Shown: positions 1 to 47,667 of the stretch, piece by piece
Position numbering within the stretch: the first letter of the stretch is position 1
Layout: each line of letters opens with the position of its first letter
DNA from: Dictyostelium discoideum
Lineage: Eukaryota
Direction: 5' to 3'
DNA: 64,000 nt
Assembly (NCBI GenBank): GCA_000004695.1
Contig: CM000151.3
Span: 4,544,001 to 4,608,000, forward strand
The notes under the pieces: model-generated
Seen by the model: the letters and a program-made list of their open reading frames with translations, nothing else
Told to the model about the DNA's origin: nothing
The model's database searches: none
Translations under genes and position numbers: made by a program

Positions 1-2869
1 AGGTTACACATATTCTTACAAATCAATTCAGATATTTTGTTCCCTCTATTGATCGTTATTATTCTTCAATTAATTTAAAACCTTTTAAAATACCTCCAAT
101 ATTAGATAGTAAGTTATTTTTTTTCAATTCCTTTTTTTTTTTTTTTTTTTTTATATATAGAATTTACTAATTTTAAATTATTAGATATAGATTTTTTTAA
201 TGAAATTAGAGATGTATCAATATTATATAAAACTATGAATGTTACAAATTCTAAAGCTGGAAATATATTATATTTTAATTATACAAATTTAGATATTGAA
301 ACACCAATTAATTTATTAGTAAATCTTCCAGAATATTTTGCAAACCAAATTCAATCCACTGTAATTTTACCAGAGGTATATTTAGATAATTCAGTACCAG
401 CAATTTGGAATAGTACAATAAATATGTTTCAAGTTGAATTTTTTTTACCAAAAAATTCTCTACCTGGTAAAATTCCATTTGCTTTATTCTTTAAAAATGA
501 TTTATTTATATTAGGTCAATCATTAGGTCCAAATGCTGAATTTAATGTAATTTCTGAAAGTAAGTTTTTACAATATTGTAAAAAAAAAAAAAAAAAAAAA
601 AAGAAATTCTAATAGTTTTTTTTTTGTTTTTTGTTTTATAGATTGTGATTTATATGGCCCAATTTTTGAAAATATTATAAAAATATCAAATACAATTAGT
701 GGTGATTTTCTTTTAGTTGGTTGGAATTTAACTATCAGTGATCCAATTAATGGATTTGCAGGTGGTTATATAGTTATAAAAGGTACAGATGGTTCAATAT
801 ATAATAAAACTATCATACCAACAGAAAACATTTATAGTGATACATATTTTGTTTCAGTAAATATAAGTTCACCATGTGCAAAACATAATTTAATAATTAC
901 TGATGTAGCACTATTTGATACTGAAAATAATAATTCAACATTTTCAATATTTAATGAATATGAAGGATTTTATAGGTCACTCTTTAATCCATTTATAAAT
1001 TTTATTGGTGATAATTCAATTAATAAGATTTCAGTTAACTGTATTACAGAAGCTATCGATGATACTCCACCTAAAATAATTAGTGTATATGTGGATCCAA
1101 AAGAAATTGATATTTCCAGTAATTTAAGAGATGTAGTAATAGGTTTTAATGCTGTTGATTCAGAAAGTGGTTTAAAGAAGGACGCATTACCAATGGTTTA
1201 TTTATCAAGTGTAGATCTCGATAAAATTGAATGTCCAATTATTAATGTTACTGTTATAGATAAATTCAATTCCCTATATCGATGCACAGTAAATGTACCA
1301 CTTGGTTTTGGTTACCCATATGGACTTTTAATATCAATATATGGATTGGTTAATAATGGTGGTACTTTTGGTGGTTACAGTACAGCTGATTTGAAAGAAA
1401 ATGGTTTTCCTCACTCCATCAATACCACATTTGCATTGGGTTATCCAATTATTGAGGGAGTTGGTAGAATTTCGACACTAGGTGGTGAAATTTGGATTAC
1501 AGGTAAAGGTTTATTGGGTGTAGATTATGCTATTTTAGAATCTAATAAACTTTTGGTCTCTAAAACTATTGGAAACTCAGCCATTTTATTAACAGGTATA
1601 CCATCATTGACTCCAAATACAAAATATTCTATTTTCGTTGTCAAAGGAGCATATATTTCGAATCGAATTGATTTCATACCATATGAAAAGGTTATTGGTT
1701 CTCCCTCTCCGACAGAAACTCCTTCAACAACTCCTTCAACAACTCCTTCAACAACTCCTTCAACAACACCAACTATTAAATGTTCTGGTACACCAGAATG
1801 TGGTGGTTCATTAAAAGGTTATTGTAATTCTGGAAATTGTGTTTGTTTTTCACCATGGATTGGTGTTGATTGTACATCAAAAATAATTTTAGTTGAACCA
1901 CCACGAGTTAATACAAGTGACCCATCAAGTGAAATTGAAACACCCATTTCAAATAGTTCGAATATTAAAGAAGCAGCAGTTTATAAATCATTTGTAGCAT
2001 TAATAGCACTAAGAGAACTTGATTTTAATGATGTAGTAATTAATCAATATTATTTTAGTAAATGGTTATTCAGTGAAATTAGTCCACTATCTTCAAAATA
2101 TATAACAAACATTACAAATAATGATGGTAAATCAATTTCACAAGTTACAGCTATAACTGAATGGTTCACTAAAGAAACAAACATATCATTTGGAGGTAGT
2201 GATTTAACAATGAATCCGTCATCATTAAAATATACTATTTCAATTGATTCTTATCCATTTAGAGATAAGCTTTGTAGATTAGAATTATTAATGTCTGCTT
2301 CTTTTACATCTTCAAAAACTGATGATATTTGTTCATCGCAAGAATTTACAACAACAGCAGCAGCAGCAAACTCAAAGGATGACAATGAAATTAGTGGTGG
2401 TAATAACTATTTAAAGATTCAAATTGGTGATCACTCAATGTTTGCAAGATTTTTAAAAAGAGGAATTATTGATGATAAAACTATCACTGTAGATAATAGA
2501 CAAATCATTAATGATGATAAAACTACTTCAACAATCGAAAACTCTGGATATCATTCAAGCGCATTAATTGGTATCCTTATACCATATTTTAGAAATTATT
2601 CTACAATAGATCCAGATTTCTCTGTAATAATAGATAATCAATCATCTTCACCCTCATCACCAAATTCAATTTGTTCACAAACTTCAAACTCTGGACTTAG
2701 TAAATCTTCTCTTGCTGGTATTATAATTGGTGGTGTTGCATTTTTCTTGGTAATTGTCATTTGTATTATATACTTCCTTTATAAGACTAACCCAGTTCCA
2801 TTTAAATTAATTAAACAAAGAATTTTCCTTGGTTGTTTTATTTCCAAAAATTTTAAATCGAAATATTAA
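1..2869 (+). CDS. EGF-like domain type I transmembrane glycoprotein, 5' partial (exons ~1-108, 161-559, 642-2869)
   Basis: Open frame enters from the window edge; GTAAGT donors at 109 and 560, AG acceptors at 160 and 641. Frames join cleanly into ORF 1091-2869. Cys-rich EGF-like block CSGTPECGGSLKGYCNSGNCVCFSPWIGVDC, (TPST)n mucin-like linker, single C-terminal TM helix IIIGGVAFFLVIVICIIYFLY followed by a short basic tail. Confidence 0.7.
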
Positions 2870-3443
2870 AAAAAAAAAATAATAAAATAAAAACTATTAA
2901 TTAAAATAGTTTAAATAAAATGTTGTAATTTGATAAATAAATATAACCTATTAAATTTATTTTTTACTTCATTTTTGTTTTTTCTATTATATAAGTCGAA
3001 CATTCTGAAAAGTCTGTTTGAGAGCAAATTGAGTAGTCTGAATTGTCAACATTTTTATTTTCATCTTTAATATCTATAAAATTTAAGAAATTAATATTTT
3101 TAAAAAAAAAATACAAAATGAATTACTTTTATTTTTTTCAATAAAATGTTCAAACGATTAAGGATAAAAAGAATTCTTTTATTTTTTTTTTTTCTTTTTT
3201 TTTTTTTAATTTTTTTTCTTTTACCGATAAAGAGAAACTTTTAATAAATTTTTTAATATTTTCTTAAAAATAAATTATATTTATTTGTTTTTTTTTCATT
3301 CTATGAGAATAATTAATTAATTAGGTTACCAGTAAAAATAATCAGTTTTAAGAGGAACTCCAAATTTATACTTTTTGTTAGAAGTTGATTTAATATTTTT
3401 TACACCATTTACTTTGGTAATTGATTTAGTGAATAGTTTTAAT

Positions 3444-13401: not shown

Positions 13402-13934
13402 AAAAATAATATAAAAATAAAAAAAAATAAAAAAAAAATTTAAAAATATATTAAAAAAAAAAAGAGTTTTTGATTTTAATATTTTAATATTAATATTTTG
13501 GTAAAAGGGTATTTATTTGAAAATAAATAAAAAAAAAAAAATAAAAAAAAATAAAAAAAATATAAAAATGACGCCACTCGACCGGAAATTTGGAAATTTC
13601 AAAAGTTTTTTTGTAATAAAATAATTTTCAAAACAAAACAGTTTTAATCTGGATTTTCATTTTTATTTTTTTATTTTTTTTTTTTTTGTGTGAAAATAAT
13701 ATCTTTTTTTTAAAAATTTTTTTAAAATTTTTAATTTTTTATCCACTTTTTTTTTTTTTTTTTTTTTCAAAAACATTTCCACTTTTAAATTTCTTTTTTT
13801 TTATTTTTTTTATTTTTTTTTTTGTATCTATAAACAATTCAAAAAATTAAGAAATAATTTTGTATTATATAAATTCTCACACAAGCGCCACACACACACA
13901 AGTAACACACACAAATAAAAAAAATAAAAAAAAA

Positions 13935-36343: not shown

Positions 36344-37051
36344 TTATTGGGATGGACCAAGATCAAATTCTGGATGTTTTTTAAGATACTAGAAAATAAT
36401 AATAAAAATTGTTAGAATATATTTTATTTAAAATATAATAAAAAATAAATAATAAATTAAACTTACTTCATGAATTTCTAGATAGGATAATTTATCGTTC
36501 TTATCCTTATCAACAGCACTAAAGAAGTATCTGCATGAGCTTTTGGCTCTTCTGCATTTAGCTTTTTCCCTTTCTTCAGCACTTAATTCATCATCTTCTT
36601 CATCAAAATCCGGATCTTTAAGGTACAATTGATACATTTCATCAAATGTTACAACACCGTCATTATCAGTGTCATATTTCTTACGGAAATCTTTGACCTT
36701 GGATCTGAGAGCTTTTTCAGTTCTGATTAAATCTTGTTTAATTTTCTTGGACATTAAAACTTCTCTAATTTCCTGGATGGAAAGGTTTTCAGTATCAGCA
36801 TCACGATTATAATGATCAAACATTGATTTTGTGGCAGCAAGTGGATCCTTAATATTGGAATTTGAGCTCATACGAGAGAAAACTTCATCCCATGATAAGT
36901 TACCATCACCATCTTTGTCAAAAGAAGTAAAAATTTTTTCCTAATTATTTTAAAAAATAAAATTAATAATTTTAAATAAAAAATTATATATTTTGAAAAA
37001 AAATAATTTAAAATTTAAAATACTTACAATTTGAGCTTCAACCTTAGACAT
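36344..37051 (-). CDS. EF-hand calcium-binding protein (exons 37051-37028, 36940-36467, 36388-36344)
   Basis: A 24-nt first exon (MSKVEAQI) is followed by GTAAGT. Exon 2 carries EF loops DKDGDGNLSWDE, DTDNDGVVTFDE and DKDKNDKLSYLE and ends CATGAA|GTAAGT. A 45-nt last exon gives YLKKHPEFDLGPSQ*. Phases fit ORF 36428-36871. Confidence 0.7.

Positions 37052-38884: not shown

Positions 38885-38965
<81 letters not shown>
38885..38965. repeat. poly(dT) tract ~80 nt (5' flank of minus-strand O-methyltransferase)
   Basis: Uninterrupted T run; longest homopolymer in window. Confidence 0.9.
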
Positions 38966-38989
38966 CAGTTAATTTCCGACCTATTACAT

Positions 38990-39400
38990 CTCCAATTGGT
39001 TGTCAAAGTAATTGGAATTTCATCAAATTCCTATAATGGTATATTTTACTTATTAAATGATAATAAATAGGCAATTTTTATAATTAATAAATGAGGTATG
39101 TCATTATCTTTAATATTATTATTGTTTCAGATTTATGTGTAAACAAATGAGTGAATTTTAAATTTTCAGAATTTAAACTATTTACAAGAATATTATTAAA
39201 ATAATTATCTATTATTCTTTATTTTGAGTAAATAAATTCAATAATCCTAATAAAAATTACCATTCAAAAATTGTAAACCAAAACCATGTAATAATTCACC
39301 CATTGCATCATTTCTAGTAACAGCACCAATACTTTCTATATGACAAAAATTAATAGCTAAAGTAGGTAATCCTATTCTTCCATATTTGAAAGTAGGTAAT
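38990..39400 (-). pseudogene. polyketide-synthase fragment (ketoreductase C-terminal / inter-domain region), degenerate
   Basis: The minus-strand translation GLPTLAINFCHIESIGAVTRNDAMGELLHGFGLQFLNGN then hits stops. It is clearly paralogous to IGLPALAINFGHIGSIGVVTRNDAISELLHGFGLQSMNGN in the 48.9-kb PKS remnant. No start codon and multiple stops downstream. Confidence 0.5.
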
Positions 39401-39402
39401 AA

Positions 39403-39463
39403 AAAGTAAAAAAAACAAGATTTAAATCACCTTTTTTTATTTTTGAATTGTAATTGGCACCCA
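39403..39463. repeat. dispersed repeat, copy 2 (see 37460-37540)
   Basis: Same core with 2-3 substitutions; lies between the PKS fragment and the Ran-like gene 3' end. Confidence 0.7.
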
Positions 39464-39589
39464 CTTTTATTTTTTTATTTATTATTTTTATTATTATTTT
39501 TATTATTTTTATTATTATTTTTATTATTATTTTTGTTATTATTTTTGTTATTATTTTTATTATTATTATTTTTATTATTATTAATCAGT

Positions 39590-40764
39590 TTAAGACAATG
39601 AAAAAGAATTTTTAAAATCAGAATTTAAATCATCTGTATTATAAAATGTTAATGGTATTGTTTTAACCACTTCAATACTTTCATTTTTAAATGACTCTTT
39701 TTCTTTTTCTTTTTGTTCCTCTTCTTTTTTTTCTTCTTTTTTTTCTTCCTCTTTTTCTTTTTCTTCATGATCTTGGGCTTTGGATGTTAAATGAAAATGA
39801 TAATCTGGTGATGGAATTAAGTCAACATTATCATTACCACTTAAAAGTCTGATTAATTTGAGGAATGGTTTTTCAAGATTAAAATTTGTTCTAACCGATA
39901 GTTCAAAATATGAAATATTCTTTTTACGATGAAATATAATCTGACTTGGGTTAATTCTTTTACCCATTGATTCTACTTTATTACCAACTAAAACCATTGG
40001 AACCACCTTACCTGTTATTCTTAATAATTCATTAAACCAATCGTTAACGCTTCTATATGATTCTCTTGAACAAACATCAAACATTATAATTGCACATTCC
40101 GCTCCAGTCCTATTACAATAATATTAATTAATATTAATATTAATACAATAAATGTTATTTTTTTATATTTATAGTGAATGGAGAGTGTGAGAGTGAGAGA
40201 GAGAGAGAGTGAGTGAGGTATACTTACATATAATCATCTCTCATAGCTCCAGGTAATCTAGTAAAAGCCATATCCCAAATACTGAAATTAACATCACCAA
40301 TAGTTGTTTTAAAATTAAATTTATGAACACTACAACCAAAAGTTGCTAAATAAAAATAAATAAAAATAAAAATATTGGTTATTATTATTTTGGACTGATA
40401 GTTTAATTTAAATTAAAGAGAATAATAAACCTACCAACATATTGAGTTTCAAATTCACCTGTTAAAAGTCTATTTATATAGGTGGACTAATAATAATATG
40501 ATATTAGTATATTTAAATATATTTGAAAAAGTTTATATATATAAAACCTACTTTACCAACTCCACCATCTCCAATTAATACTAATTTAATTTCTTTAGTA
40601 TTGTCAAATTTTTTAACTACTGGTAATGATGGTTTATTTTTTGATGATGATAATCCCAATGAAAATTGCGCACTTGATGGCGATGCTGCTGTTGTTGTTT
40701 TTGGTGTTCCAAAATCAAATGGTGGTGCTGTTGGTGGTGGTCCAAATTCAAATAGTGATGCTGT

Positions 40765-40861
<97 letters not shown>

Positions 40862-42068
40862 CCCAATCCAAACGGTGAACTTAATGGTGATGGTGCTGTT
40901 GGTGAACCCGATCCAAATGATGGCGTACTTGGTGGTACCAATCCAAATAATTCTTGTTCTATTTTTGTAATTTGTCCATATCTAAATGGTGGTGCTGTTG
41001 ATGGTGATGCTGTTGTTGTTGTTGTTGCTACTGTGTTTGATGATCCCGATTCAAATGATGGTGCTGTTGGTGATCCCGATCCAAATGATGGCGTACTTGG
41101 TGGTACCAATCCAAATAATTCCTGTTCTATTTTTGTAATTGGTCTATATCTAACTGGTGGTGCTGTTGGTGTTGATGCTGTTGTTGATGCTGTTGTTGTT
41201 GTTGTTGTTGTTGCTACTGTGTTTGATGATCCACCAAATCCCGATCCAAATGATGGTGCTGTTGGTGATCCCGATCCAAATGATGGCGTACTTGGTGGTC
41301 CAAATCTAAATAATTCTTCTTCTATTTTTGTAATTGATCCATATCCAAATGGTGATGCTGTTGATGTTGATGCTGTTGTTGTTGTCGTTGTTGCTGCTAC
41401 TGTGTTTGATGATCCACCAAATCCTAATGAAAATGCATCTCCTGATGGTAAAAGTGGAAGAGGTGAAACAAAACGAACGTTATCATTACCACTTAATATT
41501 TTGATTAATTGAATGAATGGTGTTTCAAATTTATAATTTGATTTACTTGAAATTTCACAATAGTGAATATTCTTACTACGATGAAAATTAATTTCCTTTG
41601 CTTTAACTTTACGATCTTTGATATCAACTTTATTACCAACTAAAATAATTGGTATATTATTACCTAATTCCTTTGTTAATTCATTAAACCAACTTGGTAC
41701 ATTCCTATATGAAACTCTTGAAGAAACATCAAACATAATAATTGCACATTGACTTCCAACACTATTATAATATATATATAATTAAATATTTTAATATATA
41801 TATATATATATATATACTTTTAATTATGAATTTTTTAAAATAAACTTACTAATATAAATGTCTAAATACTTCAAATTTTTCATCACCACAAGTATCCCAA
41901 ATATCAAAATTAACATTGCCGATATTAGTGTAAAGAATTAGATTACTTAGTTCTACTCCAACCGTAGCTATATTTTTATTTTATTTTTTTTATGTTTTTA
42001 TAATTAATAAAAATAAAAAAAAAGTTAACTATTTTCATAATAATAGTAATAATAATAATAATAATAAC

Positions 42069-42127
<59 letters not shown>

Positions 42128-42673
42128 TGATTTTAATGATACTTACGAATATGGCTTTTTTGAAATTCGCCTATTATATGACGTTTTAAAAATGTAGTCT
42201 AATTAATTCATGATAATAATAATAATAATTAATAATTAATAATTAAAAATGTAAAAATAATAATAAACAATTACTTTACCTTACCAACACCACTATCACC
42301 AACTAATATTAATTTGATGGGTCCATTTTTCTGTGTATTTTTTATGTTTTATGTGTATGTTAGTATATATATTTTTTTTTTTTTTATATTTAATGAAATA
42401 AATAATTTATTTTTAAAAATATATATATATATATATATATATAATTTACAATATCAATTGGTTTAATATTTTGATAAGCTTTTTGTTCAATTGGACTATG
42501 ATCTTCATCCTCAATTGGTATTTGTTCTCCTATTGCTTTTTCATAAGATGAAAGTAGCTCCGAATCAATATCACTAATATTAAATGTTGACTAAAAGTAA
42601 GAGAGTATTTTTAAAAAAAAAAAAAAAAAATTAATAAAAAATATTAATAAAAAATATTTTAAAATGGTAATAT

Positions 42674-42716
<43 letters not shown>

Positions 42717-42725
42717 TGTTACCAT
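39590..42725 (-). CDS. tandem Ran-like small GTPase: Ran-like domain 1 + FG/S/T-rich repeat linker + degenerate Ran-like domain 2 (about 9 exons: ~42725-42723, 42590-42450, 42330-42280, 42198-42147, 41967-41850, 41761-40552, 40487-40436, 40346-40228, 40109-39590)
   Basis: Domain 1 is spread over 5 small exons (KLILVGDSGVGK|TTFLKRHIIGEFQKSHI|PTVGVE...NFDIWDTCGDEKF...HLYY|VGSQCAIIMFDVSSR...NKVD...FHRSKNIHYCEISSKSNYKFETPF). ORF 40513-41736 continues without a stop through ~300 aa of repeats (PSTPSFGSGSPTAPSFGSGFGGSSNTVATTTTT) into a second G1 motif KLVLIGDGGVGK. Three more small exons follow, then ORF 39590-40084 (MFDVCSRESYRSVNDW...NKVE...). All donors are GTAGGT/GTAAGT/GTAAAT/GTAAAG. No Met or stop lies between domain 1 and domain 2. 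The first exon may be ATG only (aaaATG|GTAACA at ~42723). Confidence 0.55.
42047..42125. repeat. (ATA/AAT)n microsatellite inside intron of Ran-like gene
   Basis: ~26 trinucleotide units between exons ~42198-42147 and 41967-41850. Confidence 0.85.
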
Positions 42726-47176: not shown

Positions 47177-47667
47177 ATTAAAAATAAATAAAAAATTGTA
47201 CTATATTAAATGATTTACCAAAATAGAACTCAAATACTCAAACATGGTTATTTGTAACAAAATAATAAAAAAAAAAAAAATTAAAATAAATAAAATAAAA
47301 TTAAATTAAATAAAATTTTTAAATAAAAAAACTAATATTAAAAAATAAAAAAATTATTTGTTCAAAAAAAAATGTTTTGTTGACTTAATTTCATCACCAG
47401 ATTCTCAATTTAATTAACATCATCATCTTTATTCAAAGCCCAAGGTCATGAAGAAAAAATGAAAAGAAAAAAATGAAGAAAAAAAAAAAAGAAAAAAAAA
47501 AAGAATATTTAAAAAAAAATGAAAATATTTCCATGATTAATACAATACCATTAACATTTTATAATCTAGATGATTTAAAATCAGATTTTAAAAATTCTTT
47601 TTCCTTGTTGTCATAACAAATTAATAATTTTTATAGAAAAGATAATAATAAATAATAAATAATAATA

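Follow-up and report, generated by a model that had tools for sequence, protein, structure and literature searches.

Free Ran and phenylalanine-glycine (FG) repeats are normally separate molecules that act on nuclear transport receptors, and the question raised by a locus on chromosome 2 of Dictyostelium discoideum is whether a single gene places both in one polypeptide and, if so, what kind of protein results. The locus lies on the minus strand of a 64-kb window of the AX4 genome (chr2:4544001-4608000); coordinates below are positions in this window, with an offset of 4,544,000 to the chromosome, unless stated otherwise. A sequence-only reading of the window had described the feature as one gene encoding two Ran-like GTPase domains in tandem, joined by a linker rich in FG, Ser and Thr, and had held this architecture to be unfamiliar. 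It is almost certain that the feature is the annotated, named and expressed single gene ranB, and hence that both its identity and its single-gene structure are already known. As regards unfamiliarity, the gene is in databases and in three papers, and no discussion of the double-Ran/FG architecture was found in the literature, those papers included (PMC6830349, PMC11507795, PMC8923023). Taken as a whole, the evidence is best explained by one expressed gene whose product is a non-cycling Ran-like FG protein linked to nuclear transport, an explanation that can be called moderately probable.

RanB is not a discovery, as it has a name and a 754-amino-acid (aa) model in dictyBase and UniProt; it is a biologically understudied oddity. 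What sets it apart is that Ran-type folds without the catalytic Gln, and so presumably unable to hydrolyse GTP, share a chain with an FG tract. Dictyostelium lends itself to genetics, and RanB is expressed, carries O-fucose and is regulated together with the Ran pathway, so that the function of a non-cycling, FG-tethered Ran can be addressed. Comparison between lineages provides concrete hypotheses in the loss of Gln from both modules, the retention of FG during spacer turnover, the rapid evolution of the switches and the constraint on a C-terminal motif.

Identity and structure of the gene

The curated ranB gene is DDB_G0274943 (DDB0229425), located on chromosome 2 at 4583590-4586725, and its 754-aa product is UniProt Q554Y4, 'GTP-binding nuclear protein Ran' (PMC6830349 supplements), a label that is given by both UniProt and PANTHER (PMC6830349). 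An independent exon model has an equal span (3136 nt) and an equal product length (754 aa). The offset was cross-checked with cbpE (DDB_G0274099), a gene with two short introns for an EF-hand calcium-binding protein: its listed position of 4580344-4581051 corresponds to window 36344-37051 on the minus strand, where an EF-hand protein is encoded between an ATG start and a TAA end. Neighbouring proteins of the window are 100 % identical to AX4 proteins, for example the succinate-CoA ligase XP_644183.1.

The first of the nine exons (Table 1) consists of the ATG only. All eight introns are of the GT..AG type, 65-179 nt long and with a GC content of 6-25 %, the exons reaching up to 40 %, and the phases are compatible throughout, as the sequence-only reading had anticipated, giving a single open reading frame (ORF) that closes at 754 aa. 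Exon 6 (1210 nt) is free of stops; it begins within the first Ran-like module (Ran1), of which it encodes the C-terminal half, and continues through a 287-aa linker into the P-loop of the second (Ran2). Methionine occurs at residue 1, at residue 131 and then from residue 568 onwards, with neither Met nor stop between 131 and 568, so that there is no separate start codon for Ran2; the earlier statement that nothing of the kind separates the domains is thus upheld. The region as a whole is extremely AT-rich, in the manner of Dictyostelium; the linker has coding-level GC and contains no AT-rich intergenic stretch. All the motifs quoted by the sequence-only reading are present, namely GDSGVGKT, DTCGDE, NKVD, SSKS, QCAIIMFDVSSR, FHRSKNIHYCEISSKSNYKFETPF, PSTPSFGSGSPTAPSFGSGFGG, poly-T, a 32-residue poly-S and KLVLIGDGGVGK. 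As a separate observation, a GA/GT-rich tract in intron 8, GAGAGTGTGAGAGTGAGAGAGAGAGAGAGTGAGTGAGG, lifts the GC content of that intron to 25 %, which is unusual among Dictyostelium introns, and a similar tract occurs in the ACTFIZ ortholog described below.

One reading frame in three lineages

Comparative evidence for a single gene comes from setting AX4 beside two further lineages, ACTFIW (L001) and ACTFIZ (L010), both of which entered the public record under the name D. discoideum or D. cf. discoideum and are at a synonymous divergence from AX4 of ~0.1-0.25. The syntenic ortholog in ACTFIW (P0001) has 683 aa and exons of 3/150/51/52/118/997/52/118/511 nt, and that in ACTFIZ, annotated with 740 aa and projected to 745 aa, has exons of 3/147/51/52/118/1090/52/118/607 nt; the nine-exon layout is therefore common to all three. 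A nucleotide alignment of AX4 and ACTFIW, made without codon information, contains 13 exon indels, nine of them in exon 6, and every one has a length divisible by three; of the 17 intron indels only four do (Fisher P 2e-5). Not one of the eight GT..AG pairs has been lost. When substitutions were placed at random, at the level of the observed divergence, the frame was never found open in 20,000 runs. Intron 5 has undergone indels of 1, 20 and 2 nt between lineages and is for that reason regarded as non-coding. Judged by these comparisons, the linker-spanning frame is maintained by selection in three lineages. The fused protein is also called in three of four new strain annotations, and together with the agreement in span and length with the curated gene and the exon structure retained in two divergent lineages this bears out the proposal of a single gene with two Ran-like domains in tandem.

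The Ran-like modules

Pfam recognises two Ras-family stretches in the conceptual protein, an outcome in line with the sequence-only reading. When compared with solved structures, Ran1 matches Gsp1/Ran with an E value of 4e-67 (best Rab 6e-27) and Ran2 with 8e-54 (best Rab 2e-19), and both modules are closer to Ran/Gsp1 than to other branches of the Ras superfamily. The states of the individual motifs were taken from an alignment of 20 Ran-type modules. Ran1 has G1 as GDSGVGKT, Thr42, G4 as NKVD and G5 as SSK, and has kept the KVKAK and HRSK basic patches; its G3 reads DTCGDE, in which the catalytic Gln69 is replaced by Asp, and Tyr39 of switch I has become His. It ends ..NVRFVSP and is followed directly by the FG linker, with no C-terminal helix or DEDDDL tail. 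Ran2 has G1 as GDGGVGKS, NKVE, SVR and HRKK, and in AX4 its switch II reads DMAFTR, the DxxG glycine having become Phe and the catalytic Gln Thr. In the orthologs switch II reads DISGNE (ACTFIW) and DVAGDE (ACTFIZ) in Ran1, and DMAGNR (ACTFIW) and DLGGHK (ACTFIZ) in Ran2, so that none of the three lineages retains the catalytic Gln in either module, and the G68F change is specific to AX4. Neither module has the intact G1-G5 set, including DxxGQ, of a canonical cycling Ran, G1, G4 and G5 being intact in Ran1, and neither has the canonical C-terminal switch helix and DEDDDL tail, Ran2 being followed instead by an EK-rich helix and ..DLNSDFKNSFSLS. The description of a complete Ran-like domain made the modules out to be more canonical than they are, given the missing Gln in both modules and the degenerate Ran2. 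The NKVE of Ran2 was considered as a disabling change and rejected, as a canonical Ran from Tribonema also has NKVE.

Set beside canonical Ran (human RAN, yeast Gsp1 and Dictyostelium RanA), Ran1 is 55 % and Ran2 44 % identical over the module; the Ran-specific blocks QCAIIMFDV, FHRKKN and SNYNFEKPF are found in RanB, and Ran1 retains Lys71, Phe72 and Arg76 in addition to KVKAK. The differences are that RanB has two modules per chain, that position 69 is Asp, Asn and Asp in Ran1 and Thr, Asn and His in Ran2 in AX4, ACTFIW and ACTFIZ respectively, and that Tyr39 of Ran1, the Ran2 glycine of AX4 and the C-terminal switch have been lost as described. Furthermore, the modules of RanB evolve with a ratio of non-synonymous to synonymous substitution (dN/dS) of 0.3-0.8, whereas canonical Ran is among the most conserved proteins known.

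An AlphaFold2 model of an ortholog contains two G domains with a predicted local distance difference test (pLDDT) score of about 90, a disordered linker and an EK-rich helix. Docking of the C-terminal motif on Ran2 was sought in this model and no confident contact was seen.

The FG linker

The AX4 linker consists of Ser, Thr, Pro, Gly and Ala to 70 % and of charged residues to 8 % (5-9 % across the lineages), and in the ortholog model it has a pLDDT of <50 and no secondary structure. Phenylalanine is followed by Gly in 13 of its 21 occurrences (binomial P about 3e-9), in 8 of 18 in ACTFIW and in 17 of 21 in ACTFIZ (P 9e-12), and a comparable enrichment (P 1e-8) occurs in the central linker of a multi-Ran protein of D. 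firmibasis that is described below. There are 13 FG in 287 aa in AX4, 8 in 221 aa in ACTFIW and 17 in 252 aa in ACTFIZ, where nearly all the spacers have been swapped for PSFGFGKSSTTTA-type units. In the linker, conservation stands at 0.76-1.0 for F and G and at 0.44-0.73 overall, the spacers being replaced between lineages, although the values for F may be inflated by the tendency of aligners to favour the pairing of rare residues such as Phe. The retention of FG while the spacers turn over is a pattern known from FG nucleoporins. The coding sequence also contains homopolymers, which come and go rapidly: the run of 32 Ser in AX4 corresponds to only about 6 Ser in ACTFIW, and ACTFIZ has in its stead a run of 17 Ser after Ran2.

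The tract accordingly has the disorder, the dense and conserved FG and the low-complexity spacers by which an FG nucleoporin is recognised, and it resembles the cohesive type (Nup62/Nsp1, Nup98/Nup100) in its low charge, its richness in Ser, Thr, Pro and Gly and its spacing of one FG per 15-25 residues. It differs from FG nucleoporins in its position, between two GTPase folds and not at the end of a scaffold nucleoporin, in the lack of a recognisable pore-anchoring domain, none being found among the Pfam matches of RanB, and in its failure to match the corresponding Pfam profile. The likeness to nucleoporin repeats claimed by the sequence-only reading is upheld by the Phe-Gly enrichment and not by the profile.

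Expression and modification

In a study of early development 'GTP-BP-RanB' was found to decrease both as protein and as RNA, and it was described merely as having a Ran domain (PMC6830349). RanB has also been listed among the nucleocytoplasmic proteins that are candidates for Spy-dependent O-fucosylation, with a 25-fold enrichment in slugs in an anti-Fuc-O-Ser pulldown (p 0.044) and an AAL entry of 'Yes' (PMC11507795). The same list contains seven FG nucleoporins, transportin and importin-alpha, and the modification prefers disordered Ser/Thr-rich tracts (PMC11507795). The co-capture of RanB with FG nucleoporins in the O-fucome is a hint, and not proof, of localisation. A third study named RanA and RanB as 'the two Ran homologs' and placed ranB in a six-gene co-expression cluster (cluster 14) with RanA, RanBP1 and two RCC1-domain genes (PMC8923023).

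Relatives, origin and rate of evolution

Searches for relatives used a word index and were non-exhaustive, to the extent that a Ran1 query missed the 85 %-identical ACTFIW ortholog. Ran1 and Ran2 are 43 % identical to one another and group with different Ran-like lineages: next to Ran1 stand canonical Ran and two modules, 2 and 3, of the D. firmibasis protein RB653_000980, and next to Ran2 a single-module protein of 236 aa (P0243; GL870982.1, GCA_000190715.1) from an assembly that is taken to be D. purpureum. A recent tandem self-duplication, which the identical 52- and 118-nt exons of the two modules might suggest, was rejected on account of this divergence and the separate lineages, and it is more likely that the intron positions common to both modules were inherited from an older Ran ancestor. 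The C-terminus of the 236-aa relative bears a motif, ..IPITFFDPEDLNSDFKKNLNLN, related to the C-terminal motif of RanB, and because this relative has only a Ran-like module and that motif, the ancestral unit appears, from the protein sequences, to have been Ran2 with the C-terminal motif, to which Ran1 and the FG tract were added in the D. discoideum lineage. The orthologs listed for ranB are DPU_G0067138, DLA_02699 and PPL_10923, from D. purpureum, D. lacteum and P. pallidum, with none for D. fasciculatum, and in a supplementary table of Forbes et al. the ortholog set carries the flag '2/3 scattered' for domain architecture and is marked as conserved in regulation (PMC8923023); the scatter is consistent with the addition of Ran1 and FG. 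The fusion, whose conservation among dictyostelids the sequence-only reading had proposed to check, is present in ACTFIW and ACTFIZ, and is not general, the presumed D. purpureum relative having one module and the orthologs differing in architecture.

The D. firmibasis protein RB653_000980 (P0002; L002 10247-13327, GCA_036169595.1, CM069766.1) is a same-genus example of several Ran modules and FG/GLFG-like linkers in one ORF. It has 1076 aa and four tandem Ran modules in an almost intron-free gene with an uninterrupted stretch of 1026 codons, its central linker has 12 FG in 228 aa, and its modules 2 and 3 are the nearest relatives of Ran1, with up to 56 % identity. It differs from RanB in that three of its modules have DxAGQE, that each module is followed by a Ran-like C-terminal helix and an acidic segment, and that the RanB C-terminal motif is missing; no synteny with the ranB window was found for this locus or for the presumed D. 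purpureum locus. FG tracts also occur beside Ran-like modules in other, independent proteins: a 1.9-kb JGI contig (P0194) encodes a Ran, four SLFG repeats with a weak Nucleoporin_FG match and a second Ran, and in two further proteins (P0205, P0246) Ran-like modules come after FG tracts. Two other multi-Ran proteins were noticed in passing, an ENA metagenome protein of 672 aa (P0005) in which two Ran modules precede a histone H2A-like C-terminal region, and a protein of 416 aa (P0160) in which two Ran-like modules precede a hydrophobic C-terminal tail resembling a membrane anchor. Two G domains per chain, separated by a non-GTPase segment and with one domain often degenerate, are familiar from Miro and EngA/Der; their G-domain families are unrelated to Ran, and their linkers are structured (EF hands, KH domain) with no FG tract.

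Rates of substitution were estimated by the Nei-Gojobori method in the three lineages. The dN/dS ratio was 0.51-0.82 for Ran1, 0.31-0.78 for Ran2 and 0.15-0.22 for the last 33 residues, and about 0.9 for the whole gene (AX4 vs ACTFIW), and the protein of the neighbouring gene scsB is 99.3-99.5 % identical among the same lineages. Substitutions in the modules are concentrated in switches I and II, with G1, G4, G5 and the core strands conserved. A dN/dS of about 2 in the linker was rejected as a sign of positive selection, the alignment of the repeats being unreliable. The gene is kept as an ORF and yet is very fast-evolving for a Ran-family fold, and relaxed and diversifying selection are inseparable with three lineages.

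Weighing the explanations

A number of results weigh against reading RanB as a single non-cycling Ran-like FG protein. The agreement of the exon model with Q554Y4 is confined to span and length. Logan contigs containing the last ranB exon are colinear with the genome, with introns retained, and are thus genomic, and no transcript or peptide spanning the linker was seen. The annotation of one strain, ACTFIT (L003, GCA_054883475.1), which is AX4-like with 3 differences in 3600 nt and in which positions 1-3367 correspond to window about 42613-39247, divides the locus into products of 121 and 665 aa. The AX4 linker matched no Pfam family, Nucleoporin_FG and FG2 included, even at E values up to 10, and a density of 4.5 FG per 100 aa ranks low among FG nucleoporins. 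The loss of the DxxG glycine from AX4 Ran2 may mean that nucleotide binding has disappeared from that module altogether, and the near-neutral dN/dS of the modules, with their variable switches, weakens the claim that Ran partner interfaces have been retained. Finally, contacts between the modules are not confidently predicted in the ortholog model, and the C-terminal motif is not confidently placed in it either.

Taken at face value, the ACTFIT annotation would make two genes or mRNAs of the locus, one for a 121-aa N-terminal Ran fragment and the other for a protein initiated at Met131 with the linker and Ran2. The smaller product (KAM9945334.1, ACTFIT_003590) is exactly exons 1-5 run through the intron-5 donor to a TAG, the adjacent call begins at Met131 and, as said, there is no spanning transcript among the data seen. 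Nevertheless the division falls between switch II and strand beta4, leaving two non-functional halves of Ran1, the second call still joins the linker and Ran2 to the C-terminal half of Ran1, and its 665 aa are attained only if the native stop is bypassed, via a 220-nt 'intron', into the exon of a polyketide synthase (PKS) relic. The split is implausible because it cuts the Ran1 fold in two, while splicing of intron 5 gives a gap-free alignment to Ran; that intron is moreover canonical, shares its place and phase with intron 8, and is conserved with indels that are not multiples of three, and the dictyBase model and the three other strain annotations are fused. The ACTFIT call is probably a gene-prediction artefact, an annotation mis-split in a recent strain assembly, and two separate genes are scarcely credible. 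A young fusion drifting towards a pseudogene, transcribed and translated without a selected function, is also highly unlikely, if less so. It would account for the whole-gene dN/dS, the broken switch II of AX4 Ran2, a decayed partial copy nearby, and the missing D. fasciculatum ortholog and variable architecture reported by Forbes et al. (PMC8923023), but it has to be set against an ORF intact in three lineages, the contrast between exon and intron indels, simulations in which the frame never stayed open, the eight conserved splice-site pairs and the purifying selection on the C-terminal motif. Two proteomic studies have moreover found the protein, whose expression is regulated (PMC6830349, PMC11507795), and the true pseudo-copy, at 47.4 kb, displays what decay looks like at this locus.

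The alternatives that accept a single functional protein concern what the linker and the modules are for. If the linker is a generic Dictyostelium low-complexity spacer, its likeness to FG repeats would be incidental and RanB a tandem pseudo-GTPase unrelated to FG-mediated binding of receptors or the pore. The failure of the AX4 linker to match Nucleoporin_FG, and a score of 21.7 bits for the D. firmibasis linker, below the cutoff of 32.2, would fit such a spacer, as would the large share of it taken up by poly-Ser and poly-Thr microsatellites and by recent 168/195-nt repeats, which differ in copy number from lineage to lineage; Ser/Thr tracts suffice for O-fucosylation without FG (PMC11507795), and Phe conservation is open to the inflation by aligners already mentioned. 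An incidental origin does not readily explain why Phe-Gly is enriched in three lineages in spite of almost complete replacement of the spacers, why charge and predicted disorder fit cohesive FG domains, or why FG tracts accompany Ran-like modules in the D. firmibasis protein and in unrelated proteins, one with a weak Nucleoporin_FG match of its own, and it is judged unlikely, without being far-fetched. A less probable proposal, and one for which only a small chance is allowed, is that RanB is a fast-evolving Ran mimic in genetic conflict, for example a decoy or guard against Ran-targeting effectors such as the RCC1-repeat effectors of Legionella, with positive selection on the switches. The rates in the Ran modules (0.5-0.8), when compared with the near identity of scsB, the variable switches between constant G1, G4, G5 and core strands, and the turnover of copies and structure at the locus, with a decayed duplicate and a PKS gene present or absent beside ranB, are what a conflict would produce, and Legionella effectors act on Dictyostelium RanA and RanBP1, according to work cited in PMC8923023. 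Against this, dN/dS exceeds 1 solely in the poorly alignable linker, relaxed constraint explains the rates equally well, the comparison comprises three lineages, and co-expression with the housekeeping Ran pathway does not point to an immune role.

A possible mode of action

If RanB is, as preferred here, a non-cycling Ran-like FG protein, a mode of action can be sketched from the biochemistry of canonical Ran, in which Gln69 and Tyr39 are required for RanGAP-stimulated hydrolysis and the C-terminal tail stabilises the GDP form. Ran1, to judge from its motifs, probably binds guanine nucleotide and would not be switched off by RanGAP-type catalysis, because both Gln69 and Tyr39 are replaced. 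Lacking the C-terminal switch as well, it might approximate to a permanently 'GTP-like' Ran and present a constitutive Ran-like surface. Receptors of the importin-beta type bind FG repeats and RanGTP on different faces, and the FG linker could dock on these transport receptors (importin-beta family, NTF2) at their FG-binding surfaces, or partition into the FG phase of the pore, with Ran2 and the C-terminal motif perhaps contributing a further partner interaction. RanB would then be a bivalent Ran-plus-FG receptor ligand that modulates or buffers Ran-dependent transport at or near the pore, and not a switch. This scheme is put forward tentatively: taken in its entirety it is less likely than not to be right, and far more doubtful than the identity and single-gene structure of ranB.

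The nearest functional parallels are RanBP2/Nup358 and Nup50/Nup2, in which a receptor-binding FG tract and Ran-binding domains are combined in one chain that recruits free Ran. They share with RanB the union of an FG tract and a Ran-system module in one polypeptide, which suggests a coupling of receptor docking to Ran chemistry; they differ in that RanB carries Ran-like domains and so is their mirror image, and there is no sequence relationship. It might further be imagined that RanB, the four-module D. firmibasis protein and the FG-plus-Ran proteins encoded on protist transcript-like contigs belong to a class so far overlooked, Ran mimics that are GTPase-dead and tethered to FG repeats. Its members would bind transport receptors bivalently and would evolve quickly either through conflict, for example as decoys against effectors of pathogens that hijack Ran, or because they tune pore selectivity in particular lineages. 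Such a class is a speculative idea, with a chance of being right that is scarcely better than that given above to genetic conflict.

Features of the locus and neighbouring sequences

Table 1. Features of ranB and of the sequence around it, in window coordinates.
Feature	Position	Strand	Remarks
Whole ranB gene (DDB_G0274943)	39590..42725	-	9 exons, 8 introns, 754 codons and TAA stop (at 39590); explicit exon model
ranB exons (9)	42725-42723, 42590-42450, 42330-42280, 42198-42147, 41967-41850, 41761-40552, 40486-40435, 40345-40228, 40109-39590	-	
Acidic N-terminal leader, aa 1-50	42325..42725	-	Exon 1, intron 1, exon 2 and start of exon 3; start MSTFNI.. conserved in three lineages; dN/dS 0.5-0.9
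Ran-like module 1, aa 51-222	41461..42324	-	Exons 3-6, introns 3-5; PDB search, motif table
Intron 5	41762..41849	-	88 nt, GTAAGT..TAATAG, 6 % GC; within the Ran1 fold; position and phase match intron 8 of module 2
Disordered linker, aa 223-509 (287 aa)	40600..41460	-	13 FG; 168/195-nt repeat units and poly-Ser microsatellite
(TGA)35 microsatellite	40756-40861	-	32 consecutive Ser in AX4 RanB
Ran-like module 2, aa 510-685	39800..40599	-	End of exon 6, exons 7-9, introns 6-8; PDB search, motif table, tree
GA/GT-rich tract of intron 8	40180-40217		
Glu/Lys-rich segment, aa 686-721	39692..39799	-	Predicted helix; AlphaFold2 helix at 628-652 of ortholog, pLDDT about 79
C-terminal motif FKNESIEVVKTIPLTFYNTDDLNSDFKNSFSLS, aa 722-754	39593..39691	-	Conserved, 91-97 % identical in three lineages; dN/dS 0.15-0.22
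PKS gene relic	39247-39510	-	Just downstream of the ranB stop
Poly(T) run	38885-38966		~80-90 nt, uninterrupted, intergenic, downstream of ranB
Decayed partial duplicate of ranB 3' end	47378-47652	+	Opposite orientation to ranB

The decayed copy that duplicates part of the ranB 3' end is riddled with stops and frameshifts, and the C-terminal motif is still readable in it as NTIPLTFYNLDDLKSDFKNSFSL. With the gene and with ACTFIW positions L001 12666-13031 this copy shares 75-79 % identity, and related fragments are found downstream of the ACTFIW ortholog (L001 about 13459-13582). The PKS relic reads ..IGLPTLAINFCHIESIGAVTRNDAMGELLHGFGLQFLNGNFY up to a stop and corresponds to the C-terminal end of a 2448-aa PKS that is intact in ACTFIW, where its gene (L001 14381-21727) lies between ranB and the EF-hand gene. 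A relic in AX4 and an intact gene in ACTFIW indicate that AX4 has lost that PKS, which constitutes a structural difference between the lineages. The length of the intergenic poly(T) run probably differs in ACTFIT, as the mapping of L003 to the window shifts by 46 nt beyond the run.

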